From IMG/VR virus record IMGVR_UViG_2531839103_000002: a DNA stretch of 4,165 bases; one strand, given 5' to 3'. Below, one piece after another: positions 3,674 to 4,165 of this stretch (its first letter is position 1; each line of letters begins with the position of its first letter). Origin of the DNA: a virus (lineage: Duplodnaviria > Heunggongvirae > Uroviricota > Caudoviricetes). The notes beneath the pieces were generated by a model. That model was given only the letters and a program-made list of their open reading frames with translations, had not been told where the DNA came from and searched no databases. Made by a program: the position numbers and the translations under genes.

Positions 3674-3708
3674 AAACGTTCGCCGGGATTCACACCAAGG
3701 GAGGGAAT

Positions 3709-3813
3709 ATGTCGGATGATATTTCACTGGTAATGGAAGGCGCTCTGGCTGTTATTGCTGTTGTGGGTGTTTACTGCCTGGTTGTGTTTTTGATGGAGCG
3801 CCTGGGGAACTGA
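3709..3813 (+). CDS. Candidate 34-aa single-transmembrane-helix small protein (MSDDISLVMEGALAVIAVVGVYCLVVFLMERLGN)
   Basis: ATG 3709 is preceded by a strong RBS AAGGGAGGG (3697-3705). Stop TGA is at 3811-3813. The product has an acidic N-terminus, a roughly 20-residue hydrophobic core and a short charged tail. It is absent from the ORF track because of its length. Confidence 0.5.
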   Translation: MSDDISLVMEGALAVIAVVGVYCLVVFLMERLGN

Positions 3814-3823
3814 ATTCATTCCG

Positions 3824-3839
3824 TATGGGAATTCCCATA
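3824..3839. repeat. Perfect 16-bp palindrome TATGGGAATTCCCATA
   Basis: The sequence is exactly self-complementary and contains an EcoRI site at its centre. It lies 10 nt after the stop of the 34-aa ORF and about 15 nt upstream of the predicted hok -35. No U-tract follows it. Confidence 0.9.
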
Positions 3840-3853
3840 TCGGGCAAAACGGT

Positions 3854-3881
3854 TTGCTGTAAAGCGAGAGTTAAGTAGAAT
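3854..3881 (+). promoter_or_regulatory. Predicted sigma70 promoter for the hok mRNA
   Basis: A -35-like TTGCTG (3854-3859) and a -10-like TAGAAT (3876-3881) are separated by a 16-nt spacer. The predicted start near 3888-3890 coincides with the GCTTGAGGC motif that I recall at the 5' end of the plasmid R1 hok mRNA. Confidence 0.45.
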
Positions 3882-3887
3882 TGCTGC

Positions 3888-4056
3888 GGGTGCTTGAGGC
3901 TGTCTGCCTCGGGCATGCCACCGTAAGGCAGACAGAGAAAAGCCCCAGTTAACATTACGCGTCCTGCAAGACGCTTAACATTAATCTGAGGCCCAATCTA
4001 TGCTTCACAAACGTAGGTTAGCCTCTTACGCGCCGAAAGGCAAGGAGAAGCAGGTT
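3888..4056 (+). promoter_or_regulatory. hok mRNA 5' leader with structural elements, the Sok target region and a mok-like upstream start
   Basis: Hairpin GAGGC-TGTCT-GCCTC lies at 3896-3910. A perfect 9-bp inverted repeat CTGTCTGCC (3900-3908) / GGCAGACAG (3927-3935) offers a mutually exclusive pairing. ATG 4000 has a CTGAGG RBS-like sequence at 3985-3990. The hok RBS AAGGAG is at 4042-4047. The overall order resembles the R1 hok leader as I remember it. Confidence 0.55.
3938..4008 (-). ncRNA. sok: Predicted Sok-like antisense RNA (antitoxin of the hok/sok type I TA system)
   Basis: On the minus strand there is a -35 TTGCCT (plus-strand 4038-4043), a 17-nt spacer and a -10 TAACCT (plus-strand 4015-4020), giving a start near 4008. 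The transcript would be antisense to the leader around ATG 4000 and would contain the stem GCGTC/GACGC (plus-strand 3958-3974) followed by a pyrimidine/U-rich tail. The ends are approximate. Confidence 0.45.
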
Positions 4057-4165
4057 ATGAAGCAGCAAAAGGCGATGTTAATCGCCCTGATCGTCATCTG
4101 TTTAACCGTCATAGTGACGGCACTGGTAACGAGGAAAGACCTCTGCGAGGTACGAATCCGAACCG
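4057..4165 (+). CDS. hokD: Hok/Gef-family type I toxin, 3'-truncated by the window edge; the first 36 residues match HokD/RelF as I recall it
   Basis: ATG 4057 has AAGGAG (4042-4047) 9 nt upstream. The translation is MKQQKAMLIALIVICLTVIVTALVTRKDLCEVRIRT, with the transmembrane helix and TRKDLCE motif characteristic of Hok/Gef. An in-frame ATG at 4000 could give a 19-residue N-terminal extension, so an automated annotation might call 4000 as the start. Confidence 0.8.
   Translation, partial: MKQQKAMLIALIVICLTVIVTALVTRKDLCEVRIRT

Follow-up and report, generated by a model that had tools for sequence, protein, structure and literature searches.

A hokD locus of a lambdoid prophage whose mokC-type leader is in frame with the toxin gene follows a known layout of hok/sok loci

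The hok/mok/sok locus of plasmid R1 and the flm locus of F carry a mok reading frame (FlmC in F) that begins 58 nt upstream of hok in the +1 frame and forms a separate, overlapping ORF of 70 codons; in F-type sequences mok spans 343-555, with hok beginning at 401. The R1 system is plasmid-borne and mediates post-segregational killing, and its hok mRNA is known to fold back, 5′ end on 3′ end. [quoted passage not shown] In the mokC/hokC/sokC locus of K-12 (gef/orf69/sof), the leader start lies 57 nt upstream of hok and in frame with it, and mokC (16751..16960) and hokC (16751..16903) end at a common stop, so that MokC, the 69-aa UniProt entry MOKC_ECOLI, consists of 19 aa followed by the whole of HokC. 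K-12 mokA and hokA likewise have a common stop codon, whereas mokB, at a distance of 58 nt from hokB, ends at a stop of its own; MokB had no match in Pfam or NCBIfam. In a further relative, hokW-sokW of the Sakai prophage Sp5 (phage VT2-Sakai), experiments showed a functional toxin-antitoxin pair: Sok represses the toxin, which localises to the inner membrane, and HokW expressed from its 51-codon ORF alone is toxic (PMC8621323). We equate the VT2-Sakai locus with hokW-sokW because its Hok is 44% identical and 69% similar to R1 Hok, the figures published for HokW (PMC8621323). This locus also has a 57-nt in-frame ORF of 70 codons, deposited as ‘gef homolog’, and the records of VT2-Sakai and Stx2 phage I annotate it as a 213-nt CDS.

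We analysed a stretch of 4,165 nt (the window), which ends within a hok gene. Positions 3820-4165 are 100% identical to hokD as annotated in many O157:H7 and other STEC chromosomes, where the gene is part of a lambdoid prophage and is flanked by replication gene P on one side and the DUF968/RusA/Q genes on the other. The toxin gene itself (4057..4165, + strand) is cut by the window’s end after codon 36; in L001, a full-length record 100% identical to the window, the complete gene has 51 codons (4238-4393). Its product is a hydrophobic Hok/Gef toxin of about 50 aa that matches the Hok/gef domain PF01848 with 81.6 bits (cutoff 22) and the annotated HokD with 100% identity. [quoted passage not shown] This is not a new kind of system, and the in-frame layout is ordinary, already known and annotated: the K-12 reference annotation has it as mokC, UniProt lists it, and phage records include the 70-codon ORF, so that as a discovery it carries little weight. 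Annotation pipelines name the same locus as a 51-aa or a 70-aa toxin. RefSeq/PGAP annotates the 51-aa HokD alone here, and the records of at least 1000 contigs include the exact 70-aa protein of the window and call it a Hok-family toxin; no dedicated NCBIfam model matched the 70-aa form above its cutoff. Between 20 and 3599, the window is a typical lambdoid early/nin region in which every gene is on the + strand: those for replication protein P and a DUF1627 protein, and several small hypothetical ones. Directly 5′ of the proposed hok promoter, a 34-aa ORF (3709-3813, + strand) with one hydrophobic helix (MSDDISLVMEGALAVIAVVGVYCLVVFLMERLGN) is annotated in the identical record as hypothetical protein WP_001278460.1. 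Individual E. coli genomes contain up to 10 matching places for the hok locus.

Direct reading of the leader/hok junction (window 3700-4165) places ATG 4000-4002 exactly 57 nt upstream of the hok ATG at 4057-4059 and in the same frame. The leader frame (4000..4056, + strand) comprises the ATG and 18 more codons, 19 stop-free codons in all, reads MLHKRRLASYAPKGKEKQV and continues without interruption into MKQQKAML..., so that the ORF from ATG 4000, followed on the full-length record, has 70 codons and ends where hok ends. The frame of position 3999, which corresponds to the R1-type mok, reads YASQT* and is closed by TAG 4014-4016; the third frame has a TAG at 4019-4021 and is closed at the hok start by TGA 4058-4060. 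The original prediction was correct in these readings, and also in stating that an N-terminally extended Hok could arise, for ribosomes starting at 4000 would necessarily produce the 70-aa form. The locus thus has the mokC-type layout, with its 57-nt distance, common stop and 19 aa preceding Hok, and lacks the R1-type layout of a mok 58 nt upstream in the +1 frame with its own stop. A Shine-Dalgarno sequence, GAGG (3987-3990, + strand), precedes ATG 4000 at a spacing of 9 nt and also serves as the 5′ arm of a conserved GAGGC...GCCUC stem; GAGGC is invariant in our leader alignment (A4). Because ATG 4000 follows GAGG at this spacing, occupies the mok-start position of the Rfam RF01794 leader model and has a counterpart in 148 of 157 related loci, it is, on this comparative evidence, not a chance ATG. 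The hok gene has its own Shine-Dalgarno sequence, AAGGAG (4042..4047, + strand), within the block CAAGGAGA, which is invariant in the same alignment.

The remaining parts of a hok/sok locus were found around this junction. The hok mRNA 5′ leader (3888..4062, + strand), which extends from the 5′ end GGGUGCUUGAGG to the hok start, matches Rfam family RF01794 (‘sok’) over the full length of the model, with 114.9 bits against a gathering score of 59 (E = 1.4e-26), and thus has the structured leader of this family. A putative hok promoter was read by eye at 3854..3881 (+ strand; -35 TTGCTG at 3854-3859, -10 TAGAAT at 3876-3881), and its distance fits the RNA 5′ end implied by the start of the Rfam model. 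When the full mRNA was folded on L001, GGGUGCUUGAGG was predicted to pair with CCUCAACGCACCC near the 3′ end (z = -7.2), as in a 5′-3′ fold-back (fbi); the latter element lies at about 4443-4457 of L001, beyond the window and just 5′ of an intrinsic terminator. Around the mok start, a stem-loop (3995..4019, + strand) is predicted in which AAUCUAUG (3995-4002) pairs with CGUAGGUU (4012-4019), in the MFE and centroid structures as well as in the Rfam consensus, and its loop (4003-4011) falls within the hypervariable segment targeted by Sok. The mok start and its Shine-Dalgarno sequence thus lie in a predicted Sok-target loop, and the ORF beginning there reaches the hok initiation region, its frame being open through 4057. 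A small GC hairpin, GCGCCGAAAGGC (4030..4041, + strand), separates the conserved CUCUUAC motif from the hok Shine-Dalgarno sequence. Its length of 12 nt in the window rises to 13 nt in certain relatives, and it is thus one of the sites at which the spacing, and with it the frame, varies.

A candidate antisense Sok RNA was placed on the minus strand at 3933..4008 by alignment to the annotated K-12 sokC (L002 553-611). Its 5′ end at about 4008 would cover the mok ATG and Shine-Dalgarno sequence and its 3′ end would fall near 3933, both being positions transferred by alignment rather than mapped termini. In the predicted Sok fold, the first 22 nt at the 5′ end form an unpaired tail that complements the mok Shine-Dalgarno sequence and ATG, and a terminator-like hairpin follows. 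The putative Sok promoter (4015..4043, minus strand) has a -35 element TTGCCT (4043 to 4038), a 17-nt spacer and a -10 element TAACCT (4020 to 4015), and is proposed from a conserved block upstream of the annotated 5′ ends of sokC and sokB. Its -10 element would overlap TAG 4014-4016 and its -35 element the hok Shine-Dalgarno sequence. A consensus promoter scan called neither the hok nor the Sok promoter, and both are therefore proposed from the alignment to annotated sokC and from reading by eye. The scan’s single hit, TTAACA...TATGCT (L001 4156-4185, window 3975-4004), was without homology support and was not adopted.

The closest described systems are hokW-sokW, mokC/hokC/sokC, the R1 and F loci and hokD of the K-12 Qin prophage. 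The hokW-sokW locus shares the prophage context and the HokD-type toxin and is about 93.5% identical in nucleotide sequence, but differs in leader codons 2-6 (LNTCR in VT2-Sakai, LHKRR in the window) and at the toxin’s C-terminus (VDYESEK versus TAYEPEE); it is a paralogous copy in another prophage. K-12 HokC is 82% identical to the window’s toxin, its leader contains the same blocks (GAGGC, GCCUCUUAC and CAAGGAGA), and Sok begins 9 nt inside mok in K-12, as does the candidate Sok of the window. The K-12 copy, however, lies in the chromosomal backbone rather than in a prophage nin region and is adjoined by IS186; its Sok-target codons differ, its small hairpin has 13 nt instead of 12, and its sokC hairpin is 18 nt shorter than that of the window’s candidate Sok. 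The R1 and F systems belong to the same family as the window and resemble it in how the leader is built, in a Sok target (predicted here) that covers the mok start, in the fold-back pairing and in the Hok/gef fold family, whereas the R1 toxin is only about 43% identical and their mok, at 58 nt, is out of frame. The HokD protein of the K-12 Qin prophage (hokD, relF) is identical to that of the window, but the gene directly follows relE without leader, mok start or Sok, and has kept the hok Shine-Dalgarno region alone. Leaderless copies of this kind, directly after relE, were seen in L005 (K-12 Qin), L038, L095, L112, L116 and L164, and their homology to the intact leader starts only at the hok Shine-Dalgarno sequence (ACAGGAGAAGCAGGCT-ATG). 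By this comparison of sequences, the K-12 reference hokD is a derived, deregulated form and the window holds the intact one.

Leader layouts were surveyed in two sets, anchored in each locus on the hok ATG and the conserved GAGGC arm: the best 80 loci from viral contigs, all encoding a HokD identical to that of the window, and 80 loci from species-representative genomes, of which 77 were usable, collected by a scan with a three-protein alignment. The in-frame layout (57 or 60 nt) was the commonest, accounting for 66 of the 77 viral loci with a leader (11 with the short layout of 56 or 59 nt, none with the +1 layout of 58 nt) and for 39 of the 71 such genome loci (24 at 58 nt, 8 short), although the viral loci, as best hits with an identical HokD, make the sample a biased one. 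Together, 105 of 148 loci were in frame, 24 were at 58 nt and 19 were short, and among 69 distinct leader sequences the numbers were 42, 18 and 9; the loci are phylogenetically related, and these counts are not independent events. Nine surveyed loci, mostly of the K-12-type relE-hokD junction, had no leader. The original prediction had regarded the in-frame start as a departure from canonical loci that might change how the toxin is regulated. With functional homologs in frame as the norm (K-12 mokC/hokC and hokW-sokW (PMC8621323) have the same layout), neither the departure nor the altered regulation was borne out, and the R1 textbook mok, in the other frame, should be taken with caution as one of three interchangeable layouts.

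The third of these layouts has its mok-position ATG 56 nt upstream of hok (59 nt in L160) and an ORF of 19-20 codons whose TGA overlaps the hok ATG (cTATGAag). It was observed in viral loci L018, L008, L044 and L084 and in genome loci L102, L103, L105, L125, L143, L157 and L159, including loci that encode the window’s HokD. The mok ORFs at 58 nt range from 24 to 71 codons. Spacing does not follow the toxin: an identical HokD was found with 56, 57 and 58 nt, hokC has 57 nt in E. coli and 56 nt in E. ruysiae and E. whittamii, and R1-like toxins mostly have 58 nt, but Leclercia has 57 nt and L160, a metagenome-assembled Enterobacteriaceae genome, has 59 nt. In alignment A4, the length changes map to the variable loop that follows the mok ATG and measures 15-20 nt, to the small GC hairpin (12 or 13 nt) and, in hokB only, to the spacer between Shine-Dalgarno sequence and ATG. 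Whatever the spacing class, the hok Shine-Dalgarno sequence AAGGAG and ATG 4057 do not vary. In L096, a second ATG gave the false appearance of a 53-nt start; the 57-nt in-frame ATG is present there as well.

What is conserved across these layouts becomes apparent from the stop codons. The mok-start frame contains no stop in any of the 69 distinct leaders, against 50 and 53 leaders with a stop in the other two frames, and no surveyed locus with a leader has a leader ORF that ends short of the hok ATG. The same holds within the hypervariable 15-nt segment, where 0 of 55 distinct versions have a stop in frame 0, compared with 21 in frame 1 and 36 in frame 2. Because the mok-start frame is kept open in all three spacing classes, we read this pattern as a signature of selection for translation from the mok start up to the hok initiation region, with none on the frame beyond. 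Judged by these sequences, what the family conserves is that translation begins at the Sok-targeted start and continues as far as the hok start; how the leader frame relates to that of the toxin is not constrained. The open-frame statistic agrees with the genetics of the R1 mok mutants (PMC9841398).

The strongest competing explanation holds that ATG 4000 is not translated at all: the leader would serve as RNA structure and Sok target, hok would start at its own Shine-Dalgarno sequence, and the in-frame relation would be accidental. That PGAP calls only the 51-aa protein at this locus and that HokW from the 51-codon ORF alone is toxic (PMC8621323) is in keeping with such an account, as are the dominance of RNA-level and promoter constraints over the leader sequence and a lability of frame that shows the leader peptide’s sequence to be unimportant. 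Against it stand a mok-start frame that is free of stops in 69 of 69 leaders of every spacing class and in every version of the hypervariable segment, the conservation in 148 of 157 loci of a start codon preceded by a suitably spaced GAGG, and the loss of toxicity in R1 mok start and early-stop mutants (PMC9841398). We consider it unlikely.

The reading that we prefer, an ordinary hok/sok locus with a translated leader, suggests the following course of events. A stable hok mRNA, transcribed from near 3888, would be held inactive by the 5′-3′ fold-back and by local stems that hide the mok start, and Sok, from a minus-strand promoter inside the leader, would pair around GAGG 3987-3990 and ATG 4000 and block initiation. 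Once Sok has decayed, ribosomes would start at ATG 4000 and translate through the small hairpin and the hok Shine-Dalgarno sequence, thereby opening the hok initiation region; by analogy with the R1 genetics, leader and hok would be translationally coupled here. Because the leader and hok frames coincide, ribosomes from 4000 would produce a 70-aa form consisting of a basic 19-aa extension and the whole of HokD, and the 51-aa HokD could also be started internally at 4057. The invariance of the hok Shine-Dalgarno sequence and ATG 4057 argues that this shorter form is initiated as well. Use of ATG 4000, the Sok ends, both promoters and the protein forms that would accumulate are thus proposals drawn from the comparisons above. 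Over evolutionary time, spacings of 56, 57 and 58 nt would interconvert through 1-nt indels in the Sok-target loop and the small hairpin, with selection acting only to retain the loop’s start codon and to keep the frame open as far as the hok start.

This view of the spacing classes bears on the 1-nt indel that had been proposed relative to canonical loci. Our alignment to characterised hok/mok loci, a check that the original prediction had called for, gave 17 nt between the mok ATG and AGCCUC in the window and 18 nt in R1 and F; the length difference is therefore real, but it belongs to a family-wide polymorphism. A related explanation, that a recent 1-nt deletion fused mok to hok in an R1-like locus and left a degenerate or lineage-specific, altered regulation, fits the spacing of 57 nt here versus 58 nt in R1 and F, and past the TAG the R1-like frame is indeed open for 62 codons, with a reading nearly the same as that of the real 68-codon mok found in relatives at 58 nt, for instance L097. 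On this sequence evidence, one base is what separates the 57-nt and 58-nt layouts. A recent event is nevertheless very improbable, given that the 57-nt in-frame state occurs in 40 distinct leader sequences and in seven named genera (Escherichia, Shigella, Photorhabdus, Pantoea, Mixta, Citrobacter and Leclercia), is shared by K-12 mokC and the functional hokW (PMC8621323), and is accompanied here by remaining regulatory elements that all appear intact.

The TAG at 4014-4016, previously taken to close a frame that would correspond to an overlapping mok, was considered as a nonsense relic of a former mok and rejected as such. It lies in the 3′ arm of the predicted stem, where it pairs with CUA 3998-4000 beside the mok AUG (the same helix appears in the Rfam consensus), and the other strand of AGGTTA 4015-4020 is the putative Sok -10 hexamer. 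Stem and putative -10 box account for the TAG, and stops in both unused frames are the rule in the family. In our reading, constraints from RNA structure and promoter produced this TAG in a frame that is not used, and it is not a sign of a disrupted overlapping mok.

The literature examined does not state which N-terminal forms accumulate at in-frame loci, a minor point; initiation-site ribosome-profiling reports among it made no mention of hok/mok, the text of the hokW paper gives no band sizes (PMC8621323), and searches on in-frame mokC or orf69/gef returned nothing useful. A recent survey of Hok diversity states that mok was left unanalysed (10.1101/2025.08.07.668861). We tentatively put forward, as a proposal that falls somewhat short of an even chance, that at in-frame loci a 70-aa ‘long Hok’ with a basic cytoplasmic extension is a real second proteoform that inserts in the membrane and adds to killing, with Sok controlling toxin synthesis directly, and that ‘mok’ in general is a frame-free leader ORF that stays functional as it drifts between three states: fused in frame to hok, overlapping it at length in the +1 frame, or short and terminating at the hok ATG. 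The extreme version, in which the 70-aa form is the main or sole active toxin at in-frame loci and Sok acts directly without coupling to an internal start, can draw on the read-through of all of hok by every ribosome from 4000, on a strongly basic extension (six K/R, one E) that by the positive-inside rule should be cytoplasmic and keep the Hok orientation, and on databases that name 69-70-aa forms toxins, but it is barely credible given that AAGGAG and ATG 4057 are invariant in all spacing classes, which points to an internal start used everywhere, that the 51-aa form suffices for toxicity (HokW, PMC8621323) and that sister loci at 56 and 58 nt with the same HokD can make the short form only.

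Several further features of the surveyed loci were observed. Codons 2-6 of the leader (window 4003-4017; compared across L007-L086) are hypervariable among prophage loci with an identical HokD, between flanks that are nearly invariant; the whole set contains 55 distinct versions of this 15-nt segment, which is the predicted target of the Sok 5′ tail. The hypervariability probably keeps the multiple hok/sok copies of one genome from cross-reacting. The motif TACG falls on a Tyr codon twice, at leader codon 10 (TAC 4027-4029 followed by G) and at HokD Tyr47 (L001 4376-4379, beyond the window). A-to-I editing has been described at the position-46 codon of hokC, hokD and hokE (10.1101/2025.08.07.668861), and codon 46, by HokC-type numbering, is the HokD Tyr47 codon. 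The leader match is probably a coincidence, because the motif is not conserved in relatives, several of which have TACA or TACC. Hok loci of the E. coli type, some with 100% protein identity, were also found on contigs labelled Veillonella, Acinetobacter, Xanthomonas, Ferruginibacter, Streptomyces and Oscillibacter (L096, L106, L113, L148, L149 and L150); these contigs are mostly short, and the loci seem to stem from contamination or from the mis-binning of enterobacterial or plasmid DNA. Two hok copies, one in L135 (Shigella flexneri hokC) and one in L131 (E. coli), combine an intact leader with an internally disrupted hok frame (e.g. MKQHKAMIVAPDRHLYHRRSGGAGGRKDLCEV...) and appear to be decaying toxin genes.
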